Assembly: GCA_964566135.1 (NCBI GenBank)
Contig: CAZMHM010000001.1
Span: 197,829-261,828 of the forward strand
From: an uncultured Candidatus Saccharibacteria bacterium
GTDB taxonomy: Bacteria > Patescibacteriota > Saccharimonadia > Saccharimonadales > CAIOMD01
Direction: 5' to 3'
Length of the DNA stretch: 64,000 nt
This document shows, one piece after another, positions 27,807 to 51,321 of this stretch. A program made the position numbers and the translations under genes. The notes under the pieces were generated by a model. The model ran no database searches. It worked only from the letters and a program-made list of their open reading frames with translations, and had not been told where the DNA came from. Positions within the stretch are counted from its first letter, which is position 1. The number at the start of each line of letters is the position of its first letter.

Positions 27807-28433
27807 CTAGCGATTATAGTCAGCAAAATGCATTGTCGTATACGTGCAGCCACTGTTTGTATCTTGCACTTCAGAAACACCAAAGTTCGTATAATCGCCA
27901 ACCATAATTGCATAGTGGGTTGGGCTGGCTAATAATGCATCAAATGCCGCCTGTCGAGTATCGTAACAACGCGCCAAATTCTCGCCAACACGATCAGCTT
28001 TGGGTGATAGCCGCCAGATATAGTCCGAGAAACTCATGCCGTTTGGCGCATAATGCGCCCAATAGTTCTGCAGTACCATATCGTTACCCTTTTGCGTCGC
28101 ACTTGTTGATAAGCGAGCATCAATAAGCAATGCTGACAGCCCTTTGCTGGCACGTAGTGTATTTATCGCACCAAGATAATACTGCTCGGCGTCGGTTCGT
28201 GTGATAACGATCGCAGCAGGAGTTCCGGCCGCGCTTGCCACAGGCGAGGATGCAAGCATTGTGAGTGATGGACTTGTAACTGTAACAATAAAAAGCAATG
28301 CCGCCAATATATACCTGCTAGCGAGTACGGTCTGTTCTATACTACGAGCAAACACACCAGCACTATGGCGAAATTGATTACTATTGCTATTCTTATCAAG
28401 TAAAAATGCCTGCGGCATTAGCACATGATTCAT
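27807..28433 (-). CDS. secreted CAP/SCP (PR-1-like) domain protein
   Basis: AAAGGAGG RBS, signal anchor. C-terminal domain with YWAHYAPNG, GENLARC, LASPTHYAIM. Confidence 0.75.
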   Translation of the reverse strand: MNHVLMPQAFLLDKNSNSNQFRHSAGVFARSIEQTVLASRYILAALLFIVTVTSPSLTMLASSPVASAAGTPAAIVITRTDAEQYYLGAINTLRASKGLSALLIDARLSTSATQKGNDMVLQNYWAHYAPNGMSFSDYIWRLSPKADRVGENLARCYDTRQAAFDALLASPTHYAIMVGDYTNFGVSEVQDTNSGCTYTTMHFADYNR

Positions 28434-33864: not shown

Positions 33865-35151
33865 GTGGGTATTCAAACTATAATGTTTGGACTTGGAAAA
33901 AACGAAAATGCAAAAACTCCGTCTGGCACCAGCCTGGCGAGTAGTTTGCATGACGAAAAAGCCAAATCAGAAATAATTCTTAATTCAATCGATGACGGCG
34001 TCATACTACTGGACACAAATCGGACAATTCAATTATTTAATAAAGCTGCCGAAAAAATAACTGGTTGGCCACAAAAAGACGCACTCGGGCTCGATTACAA
34101 ATCTGTCATCAAAATGATTGATGACAAAAATGAGCCTTATACCCCCGAACAAGACCCGCTTGAGCGTATCTTTAGCGAGATTGCGCCGATTCGTGACAAT
34201 ACCGGTAACTTAAAGACCCAAGGCGAAAAAACGGTTGCAATATCAATGAGCGTCAGTCCACTTATTAGCCAAAATAATGAGATTACCGGCGCCGTAGCAG
34301 TCTTTCGTGATGTCACCAGCGAACGTCAAGAAGAAAAGCAACGTGCCGAATTTATCAGTACTGCAAGCCACGAGATGCGCACACCCGTGGCTGCGATAGA
34401 AGGTTACTTAGCGCTTGCCATGAACGAACGTGTTGCCCGTATCGATAGCAAAGCGCGCGAGTATCTTGAAAAAGCACATGCTAGCACCGAACATCTTGGC
34501 AAATTATTCCAGGATCTATTGACTAGTGCCAAGGCAGAGGATGGTCGCCTACAAAACCATCCTGTAGTTGTTGAAATGGGTGAATTTTTGCAGCAACTCA
34601 CCGAAGATATGCGCTTTACCGCCGAAAAAAAGGGCTTGGCTGTCGACTTTTTAATCGGCGCGAGCGCAGAGGATGCACTCAGCTCAAAAGCGGGTGGCTC
34701 GATGAAATTGGTACGACCGTTGTACTACATTCATGCTGACCCAGATCGTTTGCGAGAAGTTATTGTTAACCTGTTTGATAACGCCATTAAATACACCGAA
34801 GCGGGTAAGATTACCATTGGCCTAGCAGGCGATGATAATGTCGTGCAAGTACGAGTACAAGATACAGGTAATGGCATCCCCTCAGAGGACGTCCCACATC
34901 TATTCGAAAAATTCTACCGTGTCGATAACACCGCAACTCGTACCATTGGCGGTACGGGTCTTGGTTTGTTTATTTGTCGTAAAATTGTCGAGCTGTACAG
35001 TGGCCGAATCTGGGTAACAAGTGAGTTAAATAAAGGTAGTACCTTCTTTATTAACTTACCACGAATTTCCTCAGAACGGGCACGAGATTTACAGATTAAA
35101 GAAGCTGCACAAAGCCAACCAACCGGCATAACGCAAGCCACAAAAGTTTAA
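33865..35151 (+). CDS. cytoplasmic PAS-domain sensor histidine kinase
   Basis: PAS (ILNSIDDGVILLD...), H-box SHEMRTPVAAIEGY, NAIKYT, GGTGLGLFICRKIVELYSGRIWVTSELNKGSTFFINLP. The start could instead be ATG 33883. Confidence 0.9.
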   Translation: MGIQTIMFGLGKNENAKTPSGTSLASSLHDEKAKSEIILNSIDDGVILLDTNRTIQLFNKAAEKITGWPQKDALGLDYKSVIKMIDDKNEPYTPEQDPLERIFSEIAPIRDNTGNLKTQGEKTVAISMSVSPLISQNNEITGAVAVFRDVTSERQEEKQRAEFISTASHEMRTPVAAIEGYLALAMNERVARIDSKAREYLEKAHASTEHLGKLFQDLLTSAKAEDGRLQNHPVVVEMGEFLQQLTEDMRFTAEKKGLAVDFLIGASAEDALSSKAGGSMKLVRPLYYIHADPDRLREVIVNLFDNAIKYTEAGKITIGLAGDDNVVQVRVQDTGNGIPSEDVPHLFEKFYRVDNTATRTIGGTGLGLFICRKIVELYSGRIWVTSELNKGSTFFINLPRISSERARDLQIKEAAQSQPTGITQATKV

Positions 35152-40070: not shown

Positions 40071-42410
40071 TTAGTACTTTGGCTTTGCGGCAGTATTACC
40101 TGGACCTACACATATGTGTCCATTAACAATTGCCCAGTCCGAGCCTGATGGTCGGCGTGAATCTGTTGCCGAAATGTAGGTATATCCGCTATCACAGTGA
40201 GAATCACCACTTGCAGTACTGGTGCTACTATTTGGCACGCATTGTGGTGCACCGTTCGAAGTATTTGACCAATGATAGCCGCTTTGACAGCTTGAAGGAC
40301 TCGATGGAATGCCAGCTCCTGCGCCAGATGCAGATGAACCACCCGAGCTACTACCGCCGGTACTAGAGCCTGATGATGGATTATTACTCGTAGGGCTGAT
40401 CGTGCAGGTGTATGTCGAAGTATTGAATGTACCATCTTTATTTTCACAATCCGTTCTAGCAATCTGCACAATCTGATTAACGGCAGAAGATTCATTGTAA
40501 TCAAGGACAAGGTTTTCGCCATTCACAATTTGGCTTACATAGCCTGCATGCGATAGCACAATTTTAGTCTGCGCAGTTTTCAAATCACCAGCACGCAACT
40601 TAGCAATGTCGGCCTTAGCCTCACTCTTGCTTAGATACGTATCTGCTTTTGCCTTAGATAGGATGCTCTTAAAGAAGTTGCTAACAGACTTTGCAGTCGA
40701 CTGGAAGAACGACTGGTTGTAGTACACAATCGTACAATCGTAGGTGACTTTCTTGCCGTTCACAACCACCTCGCGTGGCGCACAGCCAGTTACTGTACCA
40801 AAATGATCAGTAGTGTTACGACTTACATCAACGCCATAGCTAAGCTTGTTACGTGGTATAACCGAGTTGTCTTTGCCGCTAACGGTCAAAATCAAGGTGT
40901 TAGCTTGTGCACATGGTACTGCAGTAAATACAGCAGCTTTGCCAGTGCCCTTACGCGAGATACATTGTAAATTTAAGTTGTCGCCATAACCAAGGTCAGC
41001 AACTTTTGGCTTTGGTGCGTCTTTAGGTGGCAAGGGTGGGGGAGTAGTTGCAACAGGAGTAGCGGCACCAGTGCCTTTACCAAGGTCATATGTGACCGCA
41101 CCAAACTTGCTACAAGGTACGTTTGTTTTTCCGTCCTTAGAACGTAGCGAAACAACTAGGAGCAGTTTGCTCTTGTCTTTTTTCGCATAGGTGTTTACGT
41201 CACCGTAAACAAATACGTTATTCTTTGCGCCTACCACCGGCACTTCTTTTGTCTGGACAATCTTAGGCATACCATTATCTATCTTCTCGGTAAGGATAAT
41301 CTCATACTTATTCGCATCAGAAGCAACATCAGTATTATTGATAATCCGCGAACCAAAGCCTTGCTTATTCTCTGGACTTACAGCTTGTGGCAAGTCGGCT
41401 TCACACGTTAATGTAGCGACCTTAGGCACTGGTAACGTGGTAACTTGTGGAGCACTTGACGAGCATGGGTAGGATTTACCAGCGATAACGAGCGTCCAAT
41501 CACCTTGGTCAACACCGGCAGGAGTAACTGGCTTGCGAATCTGACCCAAAACTGTAGCGTTATTGTTGATTGCAACGCCACTGAAGCCAGATATCCATTT
41601 AAAGTAGGTGCTATTGGTACTACCATTCCATGTAAAGGTCGAATTTGGCGCCTTGCCAGTGAAGTTAATATCGGCAAGTGTTTTTGTAGCAGTACCTGTC
41701 TTATTTACAATCGTAACCGGATACCACTCTAAGCCAGCAGTATCTTTTAATACTGTTCCAATGTTACACGAAAACGTGCCCGTAGCCGTCACTGGCGCGG
41801 GCGTAGGGGTAGAAGTTGTTGGCGCTGGCGTAGCAGGAGTCGCTGGGGTTGGCGCTGGCGTAGTTATCGGAGTCGCAGGTGGTGCTGCGGCATCTTTTAC
41901 GAGCTGATTATAGGTAGTTGTAATGTTAGTTGTCGTATTACAGGTATAGGTAACACCCTTTACGATCACTTTCCAGTTTGCCTGGCCAACACCCGCAGGC
42001 GTAGTCGGCTTACGCACTTGACCCTGCACGGTAGCATTATTCAAAATCTTTACACCGCTAAAGCCTTTAAGCCAGTCAATATATTTGCCATCATACGAAA
42101 GCGCATTCCACGTAAAGGTTGTGCCACTCGATGATTTGCCCACAAAAGCAATATCATTAAGTGTGTCCGTTTGTGTACCGGTACGATTTTGGAGCACCAC
42201 AGAGTACCACTGCTGGTTATCGTTCATAACGCCGCCATCAGTGGTTCCAGCAACATCTTTAAATTCGGGACCAATCGTGCACACAAAACCGCCACTTGCG
42301 CGAGAACTATTAACCACATATGCACCAATCGCGGCGACTGCAAATAAAGGAATTAATAAAAAGAGCAGGTGATGAGAGAAACCTTTAGAGTTAAGTTTCA
42401 AAATGCGCAT
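40071..42410 (-). CDS. large secreted protein with two copies of a Cys-bracketed ~110-aa module, PT linkers and a Cys-rich C-terminus
   Basis: Start at MRILKLNSKGF. Signal anchor LLFLLIPLFAVAAIGAYVV. The internal duplication is described in the findings. Confidence 0.7.
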   Translation of the reverse strand: MRILKLNSKGFSHHLLFLLIPLFAVAAIGAYVVNSSRASGGFVCTIGPEFKDVAGTTDGGVMNDNQQWYSVVLQNRTGTQTDTLNDIAFVGKSSSGTTFTWNALSYDGKYIDWLKGFSGVKILNNATVQGQVRKPTTPAGVGQANWKVIVKGVTYTCNTTTNITTTYNQLVKDAAAPPATPITTPAPTPATPATPAPTTSTPTPAPVTATGTFSCNIGTVLKDTAGLEWYPVTIVNKTGTATKTLADINFTGKAPNSTFTWNGSTNSTYFKWISGFSGVAINNNATVLGQIRKPVTPAGVDQGDWTLVIAGKSYPCSSSAPQVTTLPVPKVATLTCEADLPQAVSPENKQGFGSRIINNTDVASDANKYEIILTEKIDNGMPKIVQTKEVPVVGAKNNVFVYGDVNTYAKKDKSKLLLVVSLRSKDGKTNVPCSKFGAVTYDLGKGTGAATPVATTPPPLPPKDAPKPKVADLGYGDNLNLQCISRKGTGKAAVFTAVPCAQANTLILTVSGKDNSVIPRNKLSYGVDVSRNTTDHFGTVTGCAPREVVVNGKKVTYDCTIVYYNQSFFQSTAKSVSNFFKSILSKAKADTYLSKSEAKADIAKLRAGDLKTAQTKIVLSHAGYVSQIVNGENLVLDYNESSAVNQIVQIARTDCENKDGTFNTSTYTCTISPTSNNPSSGSSTGGSSSGGSSASGAGAGIPSSPSSCQSGYHWSNTSNGAPQCVPNSSTSTASGDSHCDSGYTYISATDSRRPSGSDWAIVNGHICVGPGNTAAKPKY

Positions 42411-42522
42411 ATTTTGACTACCTTGTTGTGTTTTAGTTTTTAGAATATCTAATTGCAATTAAATACTACTTATATGCAAAGCACAAGCACTGTGGCGGTA
42501 GTTATCCACAGTGAAATCTCAG

Positions 42523-43137
42523 CTAAACCTCTTCGCTACTACCAAACACTCGGGGTTTAAGCGCAATAATTCGTACTAAAATTGCGAAAAGATACAGACT
42601 AGCCGCAAACAAGACAACCGAAAGCACAATCCATAACCATGATGCCGGATCATCTAGCGTAGTAGCAGATGTAAAAAATAATTTAGTTAAGCTTGGGTTG
42701 ATATTTTTTAAGAAAATAGCCAACCAAATAACAATTCCCACGACACCCGCTAATCGTACAGCTATCTTTGTAATAAAAGCGTTAATCTCGTGCGCACGCC
42801 CTTGCGGGGAACGGTAATAGTGAACCAACTCTACCTCATCACTGGCGCTTTTATAGGCTGCAAAAACATATGAAAACAGCGCAAAGACTACGCTACCAAC
42901 TAATACCCACACCAAGAAATCTGCAACACGAGGGTCAACGCGCGCCTCTAGGTTAGTAAAGAAATTAGATACTTGCGTATCGAGACCGCCTGTCTCAGAT
43001 AAGGCATTGACGCTTGTGCCGTCAAAAAACACCCAAAACCGTTTTATGTTTTGCACAAGTAACAGCAAAAATCCGATACTGACGAATACGACGACTTCAG
43101 CTTTTTCGGGCAAAATCAATTTCAATAATGGTTTCAT
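42523..43137 (-). CDS. 4-TM membrane protein, unknown function
   Basis: Start moved to MKPLLKLILPEK (ATG 43137). Confidence 0.55.
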   Translation of the reverse strand: MKPLLKLILPEKAEVVVFVSIGFLLLLVQNIKRFWVFFDGTSVNALSETGGLDTQVSNFFTNLEARVDPRVADFLVWVLVGSVVFALFSYVFAAYKSASDEVELVHYYRSPQGRAHEINAFITKIAVRLAGVVGIVIWLAIFLKNINPSLTKLFFTSATTLDDPASWLWIVLSVVLFAASLYLFAILVRIIALKPRVFGSSEEV

Positions 43138-43212
43138 ATGTGTGTTTACTCTTATGCCGATACTACTACAGACATCATATATATAGCAAACACTGGTACA
43201 ATATAGTCTGTT

Positions 43213-43866
43213 ATGGCACTTTTCCAACGACAACCAATTCAGTTAAATCAAAATCTACCGTACAGCATATCAATCGCAACCGTCACGGTCCTTATTGTCG
43301 GGCTTGGTAATCCTGGCAAAGAATACAACCTTACTCGGCATAATATTGGCTTTATGGCGCTCGATAATTTTGCGGCTGCTAACGACTTCGGACCATGGCA
43401 AGACGACAAGAAATTTAAGGGCCAAATCGCCGAAAAAACCATGGGTGCCGTGCGCGTCCTGTTATTAAAGCCGTCTACATTTATGAACTTAAGCGGCGAA
43501 TCAGTGCAGGCAGTAGCCCATTTTTACAAGGTAGAGCCTGAACGCATCGTGGTTGTGCACGACGAGCTTAGCATCGCCTTTGGGCAAATTCGTAACCGCG
43601 TAGGCGGACAAGCTGCCGGCAATAATGGTATCAAGTCAATTATCCAACATATGGGCGCAAATTTTGGCCGAGTCCGTATTGGTATAAAAGATGTGTTTTC
43701 TAAGATTCCCGATGCCAGTAAGTTTGTACTTGGCAAATTTAGCGAGGTAGAGCAGAGCTATCTAGAAGATATTTATACCGAGGTAAATAGCGTGCTTACC
43801 GAGTACATTTACGGCGGGGAACTACCAAAGGATACCCGCAGTATCATGTTTGAATACGACGATTAA
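43213..43866 (+). CDS. pth: aminoacyl-tRNA (peptidyl-tRNA) hydrolase
   Basis: LIVGLGNPGKEYNLTRHNIGF, MNLSGESV, VVHDELS, GNNGIKS. Has an unusual ~25-aa N-terminal extension if ATG 43213 is the true start. Confidence 0.9.
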   Translation: MALFQRQPIQLNQNLPYSISIATVTVLIVGLGNPGKEYNLTRHNIGFMALDNFAAANDFGPWQDDKKFKGQIAEKTMGAVRVLLLKPSTFMNLSGESVQAVAHFYKVEPERIVVVHDELSIAFGQIRNRVGGQAAGNNGIKSIIQHMGANFGRVRIGIKDVFSKIPDASKFVLGKFSEVEQSYLEDIYTEVNSVLTEYIYGGELPKDTRSIMFEYDD

Positions 43867-43871
43867 TTACT

Positions 43872-45539
43872 ATGCTACTCAACGTTGATATTAGAGATAA
43901 ACATTTTGGCGATAAGGTGCTGTATAGCGACCTGCAGTTTGCGTTAGATAAAAACGAGAAGGTCGGCGTGATTGGCCGTAACGGTGCAGGTAAAAGCACG
44001 CTGTTTGCAATGCTGGCTGGCGACGATAGCGAATTTGACGGTGAGATCCAAAAAGCGCGCGGCACTATTATCGTCAGCACCCGCCAAGAGCACCACGGCC
44101 TACTCGACACGCCAGCCGTCGACTATATCCTGAGCGAACTACCGAATTATTCGAAACTAAAGCACATTATCGATACCTATCCAGAAACGATGGGGACAAG
44201 TCATCACAAAATGAACATTTACAGTGATGCGCTCGAACAATTCAGTAGCCTAGGCTACTACACGATTGAAGATTCGGTACTGCAACAACTTGCTACGTAT
44301 CAGATTGACGAGGCCAAAGCTCGCTCGCCATTAGGCAATTTAAGCGGGGGCCAGAAACGCTTTGTAGAACTTGTGAAAATTGCCCACGCCAATGCAGATT
44401 TAGCCCTTATTGACGAGCCAACAAACCACATGGACTATGTCGCCAAAGACGCCTTTATTAAATGGCTCGAGGGCGTCAGTGGGCTCACAGTTCTCGTTAT
44501 CACGCACGACCGAGATGTGCTTAAAACAGTGGATAGAATCATCGATATACGCGATGGCCAAGCCTATAGCTATAAAGGGAATTATGATGCTTATTTAAAG
44601 CAAAATAGCACGAGCACCGTTAGTGCTATTCAAAGCTATGGGGTTGCACAGGCAACAATTGCTAATCTTAAAAAGCAGATTTTGTACGCCCAACGTATGA
44701 AGCCAAGCGCGAGCACCGCCGGTGGCAAAAAGAATCCGTTTATCGTGATGGAAGAACGCCTAACGCGCGAGCTTAAAAAATTAGAGGCCGCCAATCCAAA
44801 GCCTAACTTCTGGATTGACCGCGAATCAGTCAATCAAATGCATAGTAAAACTGCCGCCAGCTACGATAAGTACAAGGCCAAGAACATCCGAATTAGCTCG
44901 GTTGATACTGTAAATAAAGGCGCTCAGCTGCCAATTATCGACGTGCATGATTTATCTCTTGGCTACAGCGAGCCATTGTTTAGCGGCGTGTCGTTTCAGC
45001 TGCCCGAGGGTGGCCGAATCCGTTTGCACGGCCGTAACGGTGCCGGTAAAACCACACTTATTAAAAGTATTGTCGCGACCGCAGAGGGCAAAACGAGTGA
45101 TGCTACCTCTTTTGCAGGCTATATAGATGTGCGCGCAAAGCTAACCATTGGTATGTACGAACAAGAAATTGCCGATAAATACTTTGATTTGCCCCTCGAA
45201 CTAGCACTCGAGCGCTTGTATCTAGACCAAGGGTTTTCAATCAGCGACCAACGGATTAGACAACTAATGGGCGATTATTTATTTGACCCAATCGGCGATG
45301 GCCGCATACCGCTTAACACACTGAGCGGTGGCCAAAAGGCGCGATTCCAGATAATTGCCATGCTGTCTAATAATCCGCAATTGCTTATCTTAGATGAACC
45401 AACGAATCACCTAGATTTACCAAGTATCGAAGAACTAGAAAACGCCCTTCATAAATATAAGGGCGCTGTCATCTTTGTAAGCCACGATGGCTATTTTGTA
45501 AACGGCTTTGAACACGAAACCGTCAAAATCGGCGAATAG
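43872..45539 (+). CDS. ABC-F family ATPase (two ABC domains, no TM)
   Basis: GRNGAGKSTLF / LSGGQKRFVEL / LIDEPTNHMD, and GRNGAGKTTLIK / LSGGQKARFQ / LILDEPTNHLD. Confidence 0.9.
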   Translation: MLLNVDIRDKHFGDKVLYSDLQFALDKNEKVGVIGRNGAGKSTLFAMLAGDDSEFDGEIQKARGTIIVSTRQEHHGLLDTPAVDYILSELPNYSKLKHIIDTYPETMGTSHHKMNIYSDALEQFSSLGYYTIEDSVLQQLATYQIDEAKARSPLGNLSGGQKRFVELVKIAHANADLALIDEPTNHMDYVAKDAFIKWLEGVSGLTVLVITHDRDVLKTVDRIIDIRDGQAYSYKGNYDAYLKQNSTSTVSAIQSYGVAQATIANLKKQILYAQRMKPSASTAGGKKNPFIVMEERLTRELKKLEAANPKPNFWIDRESVNQMHSKTAASYDKYKAKNIRISSVDTVNKGAQLPIIDVHDLSLGYSEPLFSGVSFQLPEGGRIRLHGRNGAGKTTLIKSIVATAEGKTSDATSFAGYIDVRAKLTIGMYEQEIADKYFDLPLELALERLYLDQGFSISDQRIRQLMGDYLFDPIGDGRIPLNTLSGGQKARFQIIAMLSNNPQLLILDEPTNHLDLPSIEELENALHKYKGAVIFVSHDGYFVNGFEHETVKIGE

Positions 45540-45605
45540 ATTCGTTGACAAAATTACTACTGATTGCTTATGCTTAAGTCATACGCATAACAAAGGAAAC
45601 AGTCC

Positions 45606-46517
45606 ATGAAAATATCGCTGAAAAAAATTAACCAGATTGGTGTATTAAGCCTGCATGCAGTCATTCCGCTCGTGTTGGTTGTCACCGCTGTTGGCGGTGT
45701 CGGTGCCTATGTAATTACTAAAAGCAAAGCTTACGGTAGTAACGTTTGCTACATTAGCTCAAGTACAGTAACGGTTAATGGCATGACCGGTGATTATTAT
45801 CATGTCATGGTACAAAACCGTACCGATGCAGCGCTACAGCTTGCTAACATGAAGTTTCAAGCAAAAGGTACCAATGGTACTGCTACGATAGGCTACTACG
45901 ATGCAAACGGCAAACCTACTGCAAACTTACTAAAATGGGCATCAGGTTTTAGCGGTACTCAACTTGATAAGTATGGCACCTCTACAGGTTTTGTGCGTAA
46001 GCCCGTAAATCCGAATAACGTTGGTGCAGCAAACTATAAATTTGCGGGTGATGGCAAAACATTTGATGCAAGCTGTCAGGTGATACCAGCAGGCACAAGT
46101 TTTGACTCCAGATACAGTAGTTTAGTTAGTAGCGGCGAAAACAAACAATATGCAATATCATGCGAGATAATTGGTCCAGAAAAAGTAGTTGGCGGCCAAC
46201 CAGCAAACTTTACCGTACGTATAAAAAATGCGGGAACTGTCAATTATGGAGGTTACACTCTCTCGTCTTGGAGCGTTGCAAGCAAGTCAGGCCAAACTAT
46301 TTATGCCATGAGTAGCGCTGATAGTTATAGTGATTATGCAACATTTCCTGAGATAAAGGTTGGTGATACAAAAGATATTACGATTAACTCCGTTGTATCG
46401 CCTAAATTTTCTGGCACCGAACCTCTTATTTACTCATACAACATATTAGCTATGTCAACAAAGGATGTCGGGGCCGTTGCCTACTCCAGCTGCAGCAAAA
46501 ACTGGACACTAAACTAG
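45606..46517 (+). CDS. secreted protein: third copy of the Cys-bracketed module plus a CARDB/Ig-like domain
   Basis: Signal anchor similar to that of 40071..42410. GQPANFTVRIKNAGT is CARDB-like. Confidence 0.65.
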   Translation: MKISLKKINQIGVLSLHAVIPLVLVVTAVGGVGAYVITKSKAYGSNVCYISSSTVTVNGMTGDYYHVMVQNRTDAALQLANMKFQAKGTNGTATIGYYDANGKPTANLLKWASGFSGTQLDKYGTSTGFVRKPVNPNNVGAANYKFAGDGKTFDASCQVIPAGTSFDSRYSSLVSSGENKQYAISCEIIGPEKVVGGQPANFTVRIKNAGTVNYGGYTLSSWSVASKSGQTIYAMSSADSYSDYATFPEIKVGDTKDITINSVVSPKFSGTEPLIYSYNILAMSTKDVGAVAYSSCSKNWTLN

Positions 46518-46526
46518 ATAAGAACT

Positions 46527-46888
46527 AAAAAGAGCCTATAGAGGGGGTGGGCACCGCTATAGGCTCATGTTAGCCTTCAACCCCGTACAACAAGTGCACA
46601 ACGCTTTGAATGCCCACCTCAATGAAAACGAGGGGTTAAAGCTTACGGTTAAAGGCGTTAGCTTGTTTTAGAACGCCTGTTAGCTAGCACTTTATCAGTA
46701 CAAGTACTGATACGACTAGCGGGCGCGAGCTGCGTGGAGGGTAACAACGTAGAACGCACGTTCTAAAACAATCTAACAGTGTAAGACCAATCAGTTTACG
46801 TATGCACAAGGCACTTGCGAACTATCTGGTCCAACGTTAGAATTTGGGGGTATAAGGTGCGTAAAGCGTAAGAGTTTCACGCTTACGT
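46527..46888 (-). ncRNA. candidate ~360-nt structured noncoding RNA, class unknown
   Basis: Lies between the promoter at 46894-46922 and the terminator GAGCCTATAG-15 nt-CTATAGGCTC + TTTTT (46566-46527, minus sense). No ORF of 60 aa or more in six frames. Many internal helices. Confidence 0.5.
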
Positions 46889-46893
46889 TGCAA

Positions 46894-46922
46894 ATAATAG
46901 CATTTGTTTTGTTTTTTGTCAA
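46894..46922 (-). promoter_or_regulatory. near-consensus sigma70 promoter
   Basis: Minus sense: TTGACA (46922-46917) - 17 nt - TATTAT (46899-46894). Confidence 0.6.
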
Positions 46923-46942
46923 TAATATTTTAGTAGAGGTTT

Positions 46943-47809
46943 ATGCTTATGCTTCATACCACCCCTGATAAAAAGAATTATCCTAAGGTGTTATTACAGC
47001 TTGCGCAACCACCTAAAAATTTGTTTATAGAAAGCAAAAATTGGCCCGAACTAGCCGAAAAACCTATGCTTGCTGTTGTCGGCAGCCGTAAAGTTAGTAC
47101 CTACGGCCGTAGCGTAACCGAACAACTAGTGCGTGGGGTAGTAGCGCGGGGAATAGTGATTGTGAGCGGCCTAGCGCTCGGGCTTGATGCGATAGCGCAC
47201 CAAACCGCACTTGATGCCGGTGGACAAACCATTGCCGTACTACCCAGCGGGCTCGAAGCGATATACCCAAGTACGCACCACCAACTTGCACGCAACATCG
47301 TTGCGCAGGGCGGGGCGCTCATTAGCGAATACCCACCGCACGAAAAAATCGCGTTTAAGGGTAACTTTATTGCCCGAAACAGAATCGTGGCGGGACTTTG
47401 CGCAGCAATACTCATACCAGAAGCTGCCGAAAAAAGCGGTAGTTTGCATACCGCAAACTTTGCTTTAGAGCAAGGCAAAGACGTTTTAGCTGTGCCGGGC
47501 CCAATTACCAGCCCGTTAAGTGCGGGATGCAACAATCTTATTAAAATTGGCGCTACACCCGTTACGAGCCTCGATGATATTTTGGCAGTCTATCAGTTGC
47601 CAGCAACGGCAGGCGAAACACATCACGTACAAGCTGCAAACGCCGCAGAACACGCCATTCTAGAGCTCATCGCCAGCGGCGTAACCGATATCGATACCTT
47701 ACAGACTTCTTCGGGGCTAACCCCACTAGAGTTCCAGCAAACCCTTAGCATGCTAGAGATTACCGGCAAGGTTTCTGCGCAAGGCGGCGGCAGCTGGACG
47801 TTGCGATAA
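46943..47809 (+). CDS. dprA: DNA-processing protein DprA (Smf)
   Basis: AVVGSRKVSTYG, VSGLALGLDAIAHQTALDAGGQTIAVLPSGL, SGSLHTANFALEQGKDVLAVPGPI. Confidence 0.9.
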   Translation: MLMLHTTPDKKNYPKVLLQLAQPPKNLFIESKNWPELAEKPMLAVVGSRKVSTYGRSVTEQLVRGVVARGIVIVSGLALGLDAIAHQTALDAGGQTIAVLPSGLEAIYPSTHHQLARNIVAQGGALISEYPPHEKIAFKGNFIARNRIVAGLCAAILIPEAAEKSGSLHTANFALEQGKDVLAVPGPITSPLSAGCNNLIKIGATPVTSLDDILAVYQLPATAGETHHVQAANAAEHAILELIASGVTDIDTLQTSSGLTPLEFQQTLSMLEITGKVSAQGGGSWTLR

Positions 47810-47814
47810 AGTAA

Positions 47815-47853
47815 ATTTTATGGCATAATTTGCTAGTCTTTGTCGCCCTACAC
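47815..47853 (+). repeat. left copy of a ~40-bp imperfect direct repeat flanking the high-GC cassette
   Basis: ATTTTATGGCATAATTTGCTAGTCTTTGTCGCCCTAC versus the right copy ATTTTATGGCGTAAGCATATAGTCTGTTGTCGTTGTAC. The first 14 nt match 13/14. Confidence 0.6.
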
Positions 47854-47873
47854 TAGGAAAGGAGGGGTGACGG

Positions 47874-48281
47874 ATGCACACTAACAACCCGAACTTGCTG
47901 TCATTTCTGGTGTTTCTTGTCGGAGTGATGTGTGGCGCAATCGCGTTGCTCGCCTTTTCTGAGGGCTTGCAAGAGTGGCGCGCCTACCGCACCCGTCGAG
48001 ACCCCGCAATCCTCTGCGACACTACCCGACGATACGTCGACACCAAAAAGAGTGCACACAAGACTCTTTTCTGGAGCGGCATCGTCAGCTGGGCTGGCTT
48101 TGCAGTCGGTTTTACTGTCGACATCGTCGTTGCCAGCTTGCTTCTCAGCGTTGCGCTCAGCGCGACGATTGGGAAGCTTTGGCAGCAGAGCCGTAGATTG
48201 GTCAACGTCGAAATCCGGCGCACCGAGCTACACGACGACAACGTCCACGAGCGAGACCGCAGGGATGGGGACGGCTCATGA
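47874..48281 (+). CDS. 135-aa 3-TM protein (high-GC cassette gene 1)
   Basis: AAGGAGG lies 8 nt upstream. 62-70% GC in sampled lines. No known motif. Confidence 0.55.
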   Translation: MHTNNPNLLSFLVFLVGVMCGAIALLAFSEGLQEWRAYRTRRDPAILCDTTRRYVDTKKSAHKTLFWSGIVSWAGFAVGFTVDIVVASLLLSVALSATIGKLWQQSRRLVNVEIRRTELHDDNVHERDRRDGDGS

Positions 48282-48574
48282 TCCTGTACAACCAGGTCGT
48301 TCAGGCGCTACTGATATACGGAGGTGGAATCTTCGTGGCAGTCGGCTACTGGATACCCGAAATCACTCGACAACAAGGCATCGAACTTCAGAGCTGGCAA
48401 ACCCTAAGGCTTCACGCCATCAGGATAGTCGCTCTGACATGCTTCCTCGCGGGACTGGCCTCGGCTATCCTGACGACACGATGGTGGATTATCATCATCG
48501 GGCTCGTTGGTGTGGCCGTTACGTTCATCTCGCTTCGACCCAAATACGACGAAGGAGACGATCAGCATGACTGA
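48278..48574 (+). CDS. 98-aa 3-TM protein (cassette gene 2)
   Basis: ATGA overlap with gene 1. Confidence 0.55.
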   Translation: MILYNQVVQALLIYGGGIFVAVGYWIPEITRQQGIELQSWQTLRLHAIRIVALTCFLAGLASAILTTRWWIIIIGLVGVAVTFISLRPKYDEGDDQHD

Positions 48575-48881
48575 CGAAGCGATGTTTCTCTGTGCGGGAA
48601 TCGCATGGGGCATCCTGATGGTGACGCTGACCCTCATGCGCCGCATCGCCAAGGGCGAACAGCGTGGTTGGGCGGCGGCCTTCTGGAGCTTCTTCGGCGC
48701 CGGTGGCTTCGTGCTCGCTGGTGTCAGCTACTACTACCTCGCGACCAGCGGACACGCCAAGTTCGCGTTCTGGACAGCGCTGGGCATGTCCACGTGTTGT
48801 CTGATGATTCTGCTCGCGCAGTATCGCCAGACCATCACGCCGCACGGCAGCAAGAACCAGGCAAGCAACCAGCTGCCGTGA
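48567..48881 (+). CDS. 104-aa 3-TM protein (cassette gene 3)
   Basis: Start at MTDEAMFLC, GAAGGAG upstream, 8-nt overlap with gene 2. Confidence 0.55.
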   Translation: MTDEAMFLCAGIAWGILMVTLTLMRRIAKGEQRGWAAAFWSFFGAGGFVLAGVSYYYLATSGHAKFAFWTALGMSTCCLMILLAQYRQTITPHGSKNQASNQLP

Positions 48882-48961
48882 CTACGTGTCACACCACGTC
48901 CTTTCCGCCTCAGCCTCGCCGCGTTGCCCCCACACAGGGGGCGACCGGCGGGGCTGCTTGC

Positions 48962-49001
48962 ATTTTATGGCGTAAGCATATAGTCTGTTGTCGTTGTACC
49001 C
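48962..49001 (+). repeat. right copy of the ~40-bp imperfect direct repeat
   Basis: See 47815..47853. Confidence 0.6.
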
Positions 49002-49023
49002 GTAAAAAGTACGACCTATATAT

Positions 49024-51321
49024 ATGAGTAAAAAGAATCTAGTAATTGTAGAGTCCCCAGCAAAAGCCAAGACGATTGAGAAATTTTTAGGCAAAGATTA
49101 CACCGTTAAGAGTAGCTTTGGTCACATCCGTGACTTACCTAAAAAGGGCTTAAGCATTGCGCTTGATGATAATTTTAAGCCAGACTACGAAATCCCAGCT
49201 GATAAAAAGAAAGTTGTAACAGAGCTCAAAAAAGAAGCAAAACTTGCCGAAACCGTTTGGCTCGCAAGTGATGAAGACCGCGAAGGGGAGGCTATTGCAT
49301 GGCACTTAGCCGAAGCATTGGGCCTTGATACCAAAAAAACCAAACGTATTGTATTCCACGAAATCACCGAAGGTGCTATTAAGGATGCCATTGCCAATCC
49401 TCGTACCATTGATATTGATTTAGTAAACGCCCAGCAAGCGCGCCGCATACTAGACCGCTTAGTAGGCTACGAACTTTCACCCGTATTATGGAAGAAGGTA
49501 CAACCTGGCCTGAGCGCCGGCCGCGTACAATCTGTTGCAGTACGTTTAATCGTAGAACGCGAGCGCGAAGTTAATGCGTTTACCCCCGAAAGTAGCTTTA
49601 GGGTACAGGCTATCTTTTTGAAAAATGGCGAGGAAGTTCCCGCCGAACTCATTTTGCGTATGCCAGACGAGGCGCATGTAAAAGAGTTTTTAGATGACTG
49701 TATTACCGCCACCTTTACCGTGCACGAAGTAGCGCAAAAGCCAAGCGTGCGCAATCCATCTGCACCATTTACTACCTCTACACTGCAGCAAGAAGCAGCT
49801 CGTAAACTAGGCTTTAGCGTTAAGCAAACTATGACTGTTGCACAGCGTTTGTACGAAAATGGACACATTACCTACATGCGTACCGATAGCACTAACTTAT
49901 CTGGCCAAGCGATTGCTGCCGCTGGTGCCTACATCGAATCGAACTTTGGTAAAAAGTATCATCAAGTACGCCAGTACAAAACCAAGAACTCATCTGCCCA
50001 AGAAGCTCATGAAGCCATTCGTCCAACCAATTTTAACGCGCTTTCAGCCGGCAGTGATGCAACTCAAGAAAAACTGTATCAGCTTATCTGGAAGCGAGCC
50101 CTCGCGAGCCAAATGGCTGCCGCCGAAACAGACCGGACCGAAGCTACCATTAGCATCAGCGGTCGTGCATCAGTATTTATCGCTAAGGGCGAATCACTTA
50201 AGTTTGACGGTTTCCTAAAAGTGTATGGTGGCGGTAAAGAAGATGCCATTTTGCCACATCTTGCAGTTGGTGATGTCTTGCAGCGCCAGACAATTAGCGT
50301 CCACGAAACCTTTAGCCGTCCACCAGCTCGATATTCAGAGGCGAGCCTCGTTAAGGCGCTCGAAGAGCTTGGTATCGGTCGCCCGAGTACCTATGCTCCA
50401 ACAATTAGCACCATCCAGACCCGTGGGTACATCGAAAAGGCTGATTTAGGGGGCATAGAGCGTAATGCGGTGCATTATGAACTTGTAGACGACACTGTTA
50501 CTCGAACCGAAGCTATCGAGGTCTACGGGGCCGACAAGGGCAAATTATTACCAACCCACCTCGCAGACGTTACGACCGACTTTTTAGTTAAATATTTCGA
50601 CACCATTATTAACACTGGATTTACTGCTCAGGCAGAGTTACAACTCGACGAAGTTGCCGAAGGCACGCTCGTTTGGCAAGATGCCATGAAAGAGTTCTAT
50701 AGCCAGTTCCATCCACTGGTCGAAAAGGCCGGTGATGCAACCCGCCAAGAGACTTCACAGGCACGCCTATTAGGTGAAGACCCTAAGACAGGCAAGCCAA
50801 TTTACGCCCGTTTTGGTAAATACGGCCCTATGCTACAACGCGGCGAACCGACCGAAGATAAAACCATTAAGCTTGAGTTTGCACCGATGCCAGCCGGCGT
50901 TCGCCTCGAAAACGTTACGCTCGAAGAAGCTCTTACTATGTTTAGCTTGCCTCGAGTCGTAGGCGAAACAGCTGACGGTAAAGAAATTAAAGCTAACATT
51001 GGCCGCTTTGGACCATACATCCAGATAGATAAGCTCTTTGTCTCTATAAAACCGTTAGACCCATTTAGTATCACCGAGGCAGAAGCACTCGATTTATACA
51101 CCAAAAAACTCGAGGTCCTTGCAAACCGCGAAATTAAAATCTTTGAAAAAGAAAAGATTAGCATCCTTAACGGTCAATACGGACCATACATTACCGATGG
51201 TAAAAAGAATGCACGTATCCCTAAAACGACTGACCCTAAAACAATTACGCTCGAACAAGCGGTAACGATGCTCAAAGACGCCAAACCAGCCCGCAAACGT
51301 ATCGTCCGGCGCAAAAAATAA
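49024..51321 (+). CDS. topA: DNA topoisomerase I (type IA)
   Basis: Toprim LVIVESPAKAKTIEKFLG and ASDEDREGEAIAWH. Active-site region GHITYMRTDS. C-terminal repeats. Confidence 0.95.
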   Translation: MSKKNLVIVESPAKAKTIEKFLGKDYTVKSSFGHIRDLPKKGLSIALDDNFKPDYEIPADKKKVVTELKKEAKLAETVWLASDEDREGEAIAWHLAEALGLDTKKTKRIVFHEITEGAIKDAIANPRTIDIDLVNAQQARRILDRLVGYELSPVLWKKVQPGLSAGRVQSVAVRLIVEREREVNAFTPESSFRVQAIFLKNGEEVPAELILRMPDEAHVKEFLDDCITATFTVHEVAQKPSVRNPSAPFTTSTLQQEAARKLGFSVKQTMTVAQRLYENGHITYMRTDSTNLSGQAIAAAGAYIESNFGKKYHQVRQYKTKNSSAQEAHEAIRPTNFNALSAGSDATQEKLYQLIWKRALASQMAAAETDRTEATISISGRASVFIAKGESLKFDGFLKVYGGGKEDAILPHLAVGDVLQRQTISVHETFSRPPARYSEASLVKALEELGIGRPSTYAPTISTIQTRGYIEKADLGGIERNAVHYELVDDTVTRTEAIEVYGADKGKLLPTHLADVTTDFLVKYFDTIINTGFTAQAELQLDEVAEGTLVWQDAMKEFYSQFHPLVEKAGDATRQETSQARLLGEDPKTGKPIYARFGKYGPMLQRGEPTEDKTIKLEFAPMPAGVRLENVTLEEALTMFSLPRVVGETADGKEIKANIGRFGPYIQIDKLFVSIKPLDPFSITEAEALDLYTKKLEVLANREIKIFEKEKISILNGQYGPYITDGKKNARIPKTTDPKTITLEQAVTMLKDAKPARKRIVRRKK

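Follow-up and report, generated by a model that had tools for sequence, protein, structure and literature searches.

What is encoded in a gap of 425 bp that lies between two plus-strand genes and holds no sizeable open reading frame (ORF)? The gap spans 46518-46942 of the window, by which we mean the whole 64,000-nucleotide (nt) stretch analysed, taken from contig CAZMHM010000001.1 of an uncultured Candidatus Saccharibacteria bacterium, and it separates a 303-aa gene (45606-46517, +) from dprA (46943-47809, +), whose product matches Pfam DNA_processg_A (E=2e-70). Its longest ORF in any of the frames is 43 aa, in agreement with the initial annotation, which had reported none of 60 aa or more and had seen here a separate minus-strand unit, structured and non-coding and perhaps of an undescribed class. 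That proposal is supported by conservation, by covariation and by the lack of an Rfam match. The locus is a non-coding RNA (ncRNA) unit of its own, running on the minus strand from promoter to terminator with a predicted transcript and no conserved ORF, and, as far as Rfam 15 and the searchable literature go, its RNA is a new class for a phylum-level lineage.

Transcription unit, conservation and synteny

The near-consensus minus-strand promoter that had been noted in the gap is present as described, TTGACA-17 nt-TATTAT with TG at the end of the spacer; it scores 11/12 and is the top-scoring site in 45400-48000. The intrinsic terminator can likewise be read directly as a perfect 10-bp stem, GAGCCTATAG (46566-46557) / CTATAGGCTC (46541-46532), followed by T5 (46531-46527), or as RNA GAGCCUAUAG, a 15-nt loop and CUAUAGGCUC, then U5 (46566-46527). 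It is missing from the output of the terminator scan because the scan accepts loops of 3-8 nt and the loop here has 15 nt. We infer that transcription starts at this sigma-70 promoter and stops at the intrinsic terminator and, because the promoter is of the consensus extended -10 type, that expression is high and constitutive. The features that delimit the unit are as follows.

46917..46922, minus strand: -35 hexamer TTGACA, from the promoter scan; found 16-18 nt (nearly always 17) from TGnTAnnnT in 88 related loci
46894..46902, minus strand: extended -10 element TGcTATTAT, with TATTAT at 46899-46894 and TG before it; motif kept in related loci
46527..46888, minus strand: predicted transcript of ~362 nt, its start placed ~6-7 nt past the -10 element and its 3' end at the U-tract
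46527..46531, minus strand: U5 tract of the intrinsic terminator; U-tract kept in homologues

The unit had been called an orphan. The putative RNA is instead a class-wide gene of the Saccharimonadia (Saccharibacteria/TM7), as judged by comparison of loci, and it occupies a fixed position. The first set of homologues came from contigs reached via DprA homologues (54-74% identity, seven loci), and in all seven the element lies upstream of dprA on the opposite strand; promoter, terminator and long internal blocks match exactly or almost exactly, and it is the stretches between them that differ in length. An nhmmer profile of the homologues matches 46887-46527 (E=2.5e-57), which is the single copy in the window. 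Scanning one-genome-per-species contigs with the exact 19-nt terminator-loop sequence returned at least 120 loci, and 118 of the matches listed are Saccharibacteria-type pth/dprA/topA contexts. The genome records listed are nearly all Saccharibacteria or Saccharimonadales metagenome-assembled genomes, the few with other labels share the pth/dprA/topA neighbours, and one Acidimicrobiaceae match, which has no other block of the RNA, looks like chance. A metagenome scan with a 5'-domain pattern, blind to the terminator loop, also gave at least 120 loci; among the matches listed are 107 complete instances, 105 of which have the terminator (T) loop within 420 nt, the remaining two being longer variants with an insertion. 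Predicted RNA lengths range across loci from 285 to ~420 nt. Blastn against GenBank phages and PLSDB plasmids did not find the RNA and gave only promoter-like AT-rich matches and a single 17-nt chance match.

The gene order around the RNA is equally stable. By tblastn, dprA lies divergently and directly upstream in 96/127 loci, with pth convergent downstream and topA past dprA, and in ~14 loci without dprA the RNA has pth and topA as its immediate neighbours and is fully conserved. As the RNA persists where dprA is absent, its association with dprA is one of synteny and not of dependence; the earlier description of the unit as lying just upstream of dprA is thus true in the window and implies no further link.

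The window neighbours of the RNA gene (Pfam on 40071-51321) encode an ABC-F ATPase, a hypothetical secreted protein, DprA and TopA. The convergent gene at 45606-46517, like its counterparts in relatives (L002:2973-3581, L006:3047-3616), encodes a fast-evolving hypothetical protein without a Pfam family; conservation among these proteins in relatives is confined to the N-terminal signal/transmembrane segment (48% identity over 54 aa), and with only that segment in common we rejected the adjacent hypothetical proteins as the partner of the RNA. Between dprA and topA lies a GC-rich island (47800-49000, 0.52-0.585 vs 0.42-0.49 elsewhere) with dense overlapping ORFs, among them three small, apparently membrane proteins (47874-48281, 48278-48574, 48507-48881) for which Pfam gave a weak MFS_1 match only; relatives carry other small genes at the same position. 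Elsewhere in the window, a c-di-GMP-II-GAG riboswitch aptamer (RF03169; 28520-28604, minus strand; 40.4 bits vs a gathering score of 40) sits upstream of a minus-strand ORF of 208 aa (27807-28433).

Fold and covariation

The RNA, as covariation shows, has a hairpin P1 at its 5' end, then P3, then helix P4 with hairpin P5 inside it; its 3' domain is closed by the long-range helix P2, and the T hairpin comes last. We derived this architecture by anchoring on invariant blocks, with pairs counted on 86 distinct sequences, and made a second count on a 31-sequence MAFFT alignment with shuffles and slid controls; variable hairpins stretch the alignments, and anchored-block and structure-pair counts were used in place of a covariance model. 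In the 31-sequence alignment 97.6% of cells are paired and both sides change at 19/40 pairs, with five helices covered; none of 500 shuffles attains any of the five measures and the slid controls reach 29-54%. In the 86 sequences G·U pairs number 272 vs 42 A·C, the latter largely from outer P5 positions where pairing is improbable, and since G·U far exceeds A·C the functional strand is the minus strand of the window. The window sequence itself folds on this strand at -126.7 kcal/mol (z = -7.2; 0/100 shuffles fold as well), and the plus-strand fold is weaker (z = -4.8). Together with covariation in hundreds of related loci, this bears out the structured interior that had been predicted. From the 5' to the 3' end of the RNA the elements are the following.

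46860..46887, minus strand: P1, the 5' hairpin CGUAAGCG...CGCUUUACG; stem letters vary across loci with complementarity kept
46842..46859, minus strand: B1, conserved C-rich stretch CACCUUAUACCCCCAAAU (consensus GyACCUUAUACCCCC..AUU), unpaired in the covariation-supported fold
46772..46841, minus strand: P3 (UCUAAC/GUUAGA) around the variable hairpin V1; 98.3% paired, G·U 16 vs A·C 0; V1 ranges from a 3-6-nt loop up to a ~75-nt hairpin
46759..46769, minus strand: P4 5' strand GUUUUAGAACG, partner 46665-46675; 98.7% paired, covariation at 5/11 pairs
46732..46750, minus strand: P5 hairpin with the near-invariant loop UUGUUACCCUCCA (46735-46747); short covarying stem of 3-5 bp across homologues
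46676..46731, minus strand: V3, a variable region by locus comparison, including a window-specific 9-bp palindrome (46693-46712)
46665..46675, minus strand: P4 3' strand CGUUCUAAAAC, covarying with the 5' strand
46657..46664, minus strand: J4/2 AAGCUAAC (consensus AnACUAAC), whose CUAAC alternatively pairs with GUUAG of P3 (99.8% complementary)
46647..46656, minus strand: P2 5' strand GCCUUUAACC, partner 46573-46582; 100% paired in the 31 sequences, CG<->GC swaps at two positions
46611..46618, minus strand: G-rich strand GGUGGGCA, T-loop partner in a candidate pseudoknot; GGUGGG is present in the 3' domain of 75/80 homologues
46573..46582, minus strand: P2 3' strand GGUUGAAGGC, covarying with the 5' strand
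46532..46566, minus strand: T hairpin, a 10-bp covarying stem (94.7% paired) and an invariant 15-nt loop CGGUGCCCACCCCCU (46542-46556)

The inverted pair of 13-mers that had been pointed out in the interior (46663-46675/46759-46771) is real and corresponds to the conserved helix P4. The 9-bp palindrome at 46693-46712 also exists; it turned out to be a genome-specific insertion in a variable hairpin and is not conserved. In relatives the consensus of P4 is GUUUUAGAGCG/CGCUCUAAAAC, enclosing P5. The 5' strand is GUUUUAGAACG in the window, but GUUUUAGAGCG is the usual form among relatives, and this second form contains the 10-nt sequence GUUUUAGAGC, with which Cas9 (type II) CRISPR repeats begin. 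We regard the resemblance, 10 nt inside a perfect covarying helix, as coincidence. Neither cas nor any other effector gene turned up nearby, by Pfam on 40071-51321 in the window and among the called genes of related loci.

P2, with the consensus CCCUUUAAC/GUUGAAGGG, closes a variable 3' domain. In the 86 sequences its nine consecutive pairs are 100% paired, with C-G<->G-C exchanges at two positions and U·G<->U-A, and one locus (L046) carries a compensating A/U insertion. Two metagenome contigs (L141 and L206) have an otherwise intact RNA with ~190 nt inserted after ACUAG of J4/2 and before CCCUUUAAC of P2. Minimum free energy (MFE) folding of the window sequence places a closing helix between B1 and block B6, which we rejected as covariation supports pairing of B4 with B6; enforcing the covarying helices costs 6 kcal/mol relative to the MFE structure and leaves B1 single-stranded.

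The T stem takes up to six standard pair types per position in the 86 sequences. In the 107-instance metagenome sample, which was chosen blind to the loop, the loop core GGUGCCCACCCCCU is invariant and the two loop-closing pairs covary (A-U/G-C in 83, G-C/G-C in 14, others in the rest). Complementarity of this loop to a strand upstream, also noticed initially, is genuine and extends over 46611-46618 (GGUGGGCA), where homologues have the consensus (GG)GGUGGG, GGUGGG being found in 75/80 RNAs vs 2.9 expected; an optional hairpin lies between this strand and the T hairpin in homologues. A pseudoknot CCCACC(CC):GGUGGG is therefore a plausible candidate, on which covariation is uninformative because both strands are invariant. 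Second copies of the 3' end occur in a few loci: L238 has two inverted copies (UAAUGAG...loop...UCUUUAU; 3273 + and 1002 -) ~2.3 kb apart, and L176 (4970, 5184) and L140 (2187, 2155) have a second, imperfect T-loop copy just downstream of the RNA.

T-loop hairpins in viral contigs

The 19-mer T-loop sequence also occurs in 25 IMG/VR contigs, for which a rough estimate, not a computation, puts the chance expectation below one. In 24 of these the loop alone is held in common, on a stem that differs by lineage and is always self-complementary, and parts of the RNA outside the hairpin are detected by nhmmer in L266 alone among the 25, where the RNA gene is complete: here a mobile element (RecT, FtsK-like protein, two methyltransferases) stands beside the full RNA gene and has a second hairpin of its own. 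The bare 15-nt loop CGGUGCCCACCCCCU is found 89 times in viral contigs, with a bimodal distribution of stem lengths. In 62 of the 89 the flanking stems are 4-18 bp of unrelated sequence, closed by AG/CU (25), GG/CC (12), CG/CG (7) or UG/CA (6); in 26 others, most of them from GC-rich contigs as chance predicts, the stem is 0-2 bp long, and one more has 3 bp. A control with the P5-loop 15-mer gave 57 matches in viral contigs, coding or chance and without flanking stems. Because the T loop sits on unrelated phage stems and the P5-loop control has none, the T hairpin is, on this comparison, a separable RNA module with a sequence-specific loop. The viral hairpin set (L249-L273, L330-L392) comprises ~60 contigs, is without an Rfam match and is absent from GenBank phages.

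The position of the phage hairpins follows that of the genes around them. Among 56 distinct hairpins, 24 follow the end of a same-strand ORF by at most 60 nt (3 do so in the opposite orientation), 24 precede a same-strand start by at most 120 nt and 14 have a U-tail; the hairpins are in sense orientation, often 0-20 nt past a stop codon and ~40-50 nt before the next start. In several phage families the hairpin has the portal gene with a small ORF on one side and the scaffold/major-capsid genes on the other (PHROGs), and other hairpins stand before recT or after the endolysin gene. No GGUGGG or other G-rich partner was found beside the phage hairpins. Because the phage copies follow stop codons we also looked for a conserved ORF before the T hairpin of the RNA, and rejected this possibility as no small ORF ending there is conserved.

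The GC content of the hairpin-bearing contigs is mostly 0.42-0.50, and these viruses presumably infect Saccharibacteria. A search for phage hosts via capsid homologues led to a large family of ~50-kb phages without organism names. For the capsid protein of one family with the hairpin (L250:4245-5180; Pfam PF25209/PF10124, Mu gpT-like) the homologues at E<=1e-20 number 894, many of those retrieved (P0121-P0240) being on ~50-kb contigs, which points to a large, seemingly uncharacterised phage group.

Proposed function, alternatives and related systems

The RNA has the general marks of an ncRNA gene (promoter, terminator, no ORF, compensatory changes on the transcribed strand), and it corresponds to no family that we could find. 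At the gathering score Rfam 15 matches neither the window nor any of 18 diverse homologous loci, and a cut-off relaxed to E<=10 gave nothing credible for the window element, for the main-group representative L035 or for a phage hairpin; the matches, far below threshold (microRNA precursors, a CRISPR direct repeat at the promoter, unrelated small RNA (sRNA)/snoRNA families), resemble chance. The checks proposed in the initial annotation, a search of Rfam and a comparison with related genomes, have thus yielded no match in the former and strong conservation and covariation in the latter. Its judgement that the RNA is neither tmRNA nor RNase P RNA also holds. ARAGORN finds no tRNA or tmRNA at the locus and no tmRNA in the window or in 24 homologous loci; neither ARAGORN nor Rfam detects a tRNA-like domain, acceptor stem, T arm or CCA end, and no tag-peptide frame is conserved, ORF lengths among homologues ranging over 0-102 aa with unrelated peptides. 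Without a tRNA-like domain and a tag ORF, tmRNA is excluded. RNase P RNA (RF00010/RF00011) covariance models match nothing in the window, L035 or the 18 loci, the P4 core sequences (GGAAAGUCC ... ACAGAA..GGCUUA) are absent from the RNA consensus, and the 5' end is a local hairpin and the 3' end the terminator, unpaired with each other, unlike P1 of RNase P; lacking P4 sequences and paired ends, the RNA is not RNase P RNA. As for other families, there is no domain IV or model match for signal recognition particle (SRP) RNA (4.5S/scRNA), the conserved loops being C-rich and not GNRA; no model match to 6S RNA, the covariation-supported fold being multi-branched and not a ~180-nt rod with a central bubble; no model match to the raiA motif RNA and no comFC synteny, the neighbours being pth, dprA and topA; and no adjacent cas9, iscB or tnpB and no Rfam match for guide RNAs (tracrRNA/sgRNA, IscB/TnpB omega RNA, HEARO). 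In the literature as far as it is searchable, six diagnostic 15-mers of the RNA do not occur, ncRNA work on Saccharibacteria and Patescibacteria does not describe such an RNA, and no lineage-specific structured trans-acting RNA of Saccharibacteria was found, the only TM7-specific motif (in a 224-motif survey) being the cis-regulatory lysM-TM7.

What might such an RNA do? Since no gene follows it and it is independent of dprA, it would act in trans. It displays several invariant C-rich stretches as single strands, in B1 (...ACCCCC...) and in the loops of P5 (UUGUUACCCUCCA) and of the T hairpin (CGGUGCCCACCCCCU), together with one conserved G-rich strand (GGUGGG) that could pair with the T loop as a pseudoknot. 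We propose that an abundant RNA of this kind may act as a ribonucleoprotein (RNP) scaffold or decoy, its C-rich loops, of which the T hairpin is the clearest, being the docking sites of a partner conserved in the cell, which would be a protein or a G-rich RNA, and that phages may set the same loop on hairpins in their own operons to recruit this partner or to compete for it. The explanation as a whole, that is, a stand-alone gene for a structured trans-acting RNA of ~285-420 nt across Saccharimonadia together with its mechanism, seems to us evenly poised between right and wrong. The specific idea of an RNP scaffold or decoy with docking loops copied by phages is tentative and falls somewhat short of that. 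A fuller formulation, in which a housekeeping-grade RNP RNA uses the loop CGGUGCCCACCCCCU as a code for a cellular factor or for its own GGUGGG strand, and phages have copied that code onto hairpins of late and early operons, is offered with more reserve still.

The C-rich loops could equally be read as base-pairing elements. A riboregulator whose loops (CCUCC, CCCCCUCU, ACCCCC) pair with G-rich or Shine-Dalgarno (SD)-like mRNA sites, with the phage hairpins as competitors or targets, would agree with the presence of several invariant C-rich single strands in loops and with the anti-SD-like CCUCC of the P5 loop. Class-wide sequence invariance in a multi-domain fold of more than 300 nt is, however, atypical of sRNA regulators, and the window has no extended complementary sites besides the gene itself: trans targets for the P5 loop, T loop and B1 amounted to the gene and one antisense site with one mismatch (34134-34146). 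Nor do the conserved single strands complement E. coli 16S, 23S or 5S rRNA better than shuffled sequences do, the P5 loop coming closest, with 16S 249-269 (5% level), and the conserved blocks show no direct similarity to E. coli rRNA or tRNA. We consider a riboregulator possible but unlikely. An RNA-only machine, by which we mean a ribozyme or a self-assembling ornate RNA comparable to ROOL, GOLLD and OLE whose T loop would pair with the GGUGGG of another molecule, is quite unlikely. The invariant junction nucleotides, the long-range helix and the conserved pair of loop and partner would suit it, as would the formation of homo-oligomers by large ornate bacterial RNAs (PMC12286853), but no catalytic motif was recognised, pairing of the loop in cis and in trans is indistinguishable from the present data, and a bare hairpin inside phage operons is not readily explained. 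That hairpin could also be a DNA-level attachment or nicking site for phages or mobile elements, the phage copies being attP-like. Small stable-RNA genes are classic integration targets, and one mobile element, that of L266, does adjoin the RNA gene. Yet the loop is all that is in common, the phage stems differing from the host's and from one another while each is self-complementary; many copies lie in head-morphogenesis modules between portal and scaffold genes and not beside integrases; and the orientation of the hairpin tracks the sense strand of the flanking genes, making a DNA site very unlikely.

Readings that would deny the RNA an identity of its own fare worse. A highly divergent form of a universal housekeeping RNA (RNase P RNA, tmRNA, SRP RNA or 6S RNA) would fit its size and promoter strength, one complete Saccharibacteria genome is annotated with only two ncRNAs (PMC8830319), and the RNase P RNAs of the candidate phyla radiation (CPR) diverge below standard thresholds (PMC8172020). 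Against this, Rfam and ARAGORN give no match, the hallmarks of all four families are absent, and divergent yet recognisable RNase P RNAs of the RF00010 type are reported for all 35 circular CPR genomes studied, two Saccharimonadia among them (PMC8172020); the idea is highly improbable. No less improbable is a cis element of dprA, in the form of a long plus-strand leader or an antisense RNA controlling dprA only. The two genes are divergent, only 21-49 nt separate the RNA promoter from the dprA start codon and most loci have dprA as their upstream neighbour, but the minus strand is marked as the functional one by the promoter, by the U-tract and by the G·U excess over A·C, conservation spans the whole 300+ nt, beyond the overlap, and the RNA is fully conserved where dprA is missing. 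This reading is largely refuted. As for a small-protein gene or a decayed pseudogene remnant, there are minus-strand ORFs of 21-43 aa, but these are not conserved in length, frame or presence, the hairpins contain indels of arbitrary length, and substitutions in the helices are compensatory. As the ORFs are not conserved and the indels are of arbitrary length, the RNA is not coding. The conserved small ORF and the decayed coding sequence that the initial annotation had allowed for are not seen in the homologous regions, and the likelihood of either is close to nil.

Several points weigh against our own proposal of a new class of RNA acting as a docking scaffold. Absence from Rfam 15 and the searchable literature is no proof that the RNA is undescribed elsewhere, and the transcript and both its ends are predictions from sequence. 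The docking partner is putative, deduced from the conserved loops; the pseudoknot strands, being invariant, draw no support from covariation; and the lack of targets in the 64-kb window neither supports nor excludes base pairing in trans. The link between these phages and their host rests only on GC content and on the one element adjoining the RNA gene. The fold itself offers alternatives, with B1 and B4 each complementary to B6 and two copies of CUAAC (B1 46836-46841 or J4/2 46657-46661) competing for one GUUAG (46772-46777). The B1 copy of CUAAC is absent in some lineages (e.g. L124, L005, L056, L075), and a second GUUAG is found inside V1 in L006, L007, L088 and L094. The competing copies suggest mutually exclusive folds or an ancestral duplication, and the RNA may switch conformation rather than form a static scaffold.

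Saccharibacteria and other CPR bacteria have tiny genomes with little beyond the essentials. That every lineage sampled nonetheless keeps this RNA, in a single place and with near-invariant blocks, makes it likely that it does something fundamental. New class-wide structured RNAs are rare, the usual comparisons being OLE, raiA and ROOL, and we know of none of this kind for the CPR. The phage copies of the T hairpin provide an experimental handle, as the 35-nt hairpin is usable as bait for the partner, and mutants of loops and helices are feasible since Saccharibacteria are genetically tractable via natural transformation (PMC10633639). The RNA profile could serve as a marker for Saccharibacteria contigs and the hairpin loop as one for candidate Saccharibacteria phages. 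If the proposal is true, it would add a new axis of host-virus RNA mimicry in the CPR, in which phages of ultra-small epibionts hijack or evade the system.

Among known systems the raiA motif RNA (RF03072) is alike in being a stand-alone, highly conserved structured ncRNA of ~200+ nt and unknown biochemical function, with its own promoter and terminator, fixed synteny and a competence gene as neighbour (comFC in raiA, dprA here). It differs in its distribution (Bacillota and Actinomycetota), its neighbours and its conserved sequences, there is no covariance-model match, and we know of no phage-borne module of raiA. The viral hairpins recall phage RNA mimicry (RNA anti-CRISPRs, pseudo-ToxI), where a short hairpin reproduces the recognition element of a host RNA, and lambda boxB-type hairpins, in which the stem varies and the conserved loop brings a factor to the transcript; here, by contrast, there is no Cas, toxin or N-like partner, and the host RNA is a single-copy, housekeeping-type gene and not a defence locus. 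Like 6S and CsrB, which are abundant, constitutive trans-acting RNAs that offer a mimic or a repeated motif to a protein, the RNA carries several motifs of one type (ACCCYC), but it has neither the 6S rod with its central bubble nor GGA hairpin repeats, gives no model match, and has a partner that is putative. With sRNAs of the RsaE/RoxS type it shares unpaired C-rich loop motifs able to pair with G-rich ribosome-binding sites; those RNAs are ~100 nt long and conserved at the genus-to-order level, whereas this one is 3-4x larger, multi-domain and invariant across a class. OLE, ROOL and GOLLD are, as here, large multi-helix RNAs with invariant junction nucleotides and without a known function, ROOL and GOLLD being associated with phages or prophages, and large ornate bacterial RNAs assemble as homo-oligomers via loop-loop contacts (PMC12286853). 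Compared with them the Saccharibacteria RNA is smaller (285-420 nt), is restricted to that lineage and has no sequence or model similarity, and phages share one hairpin only, not the whole RNA.

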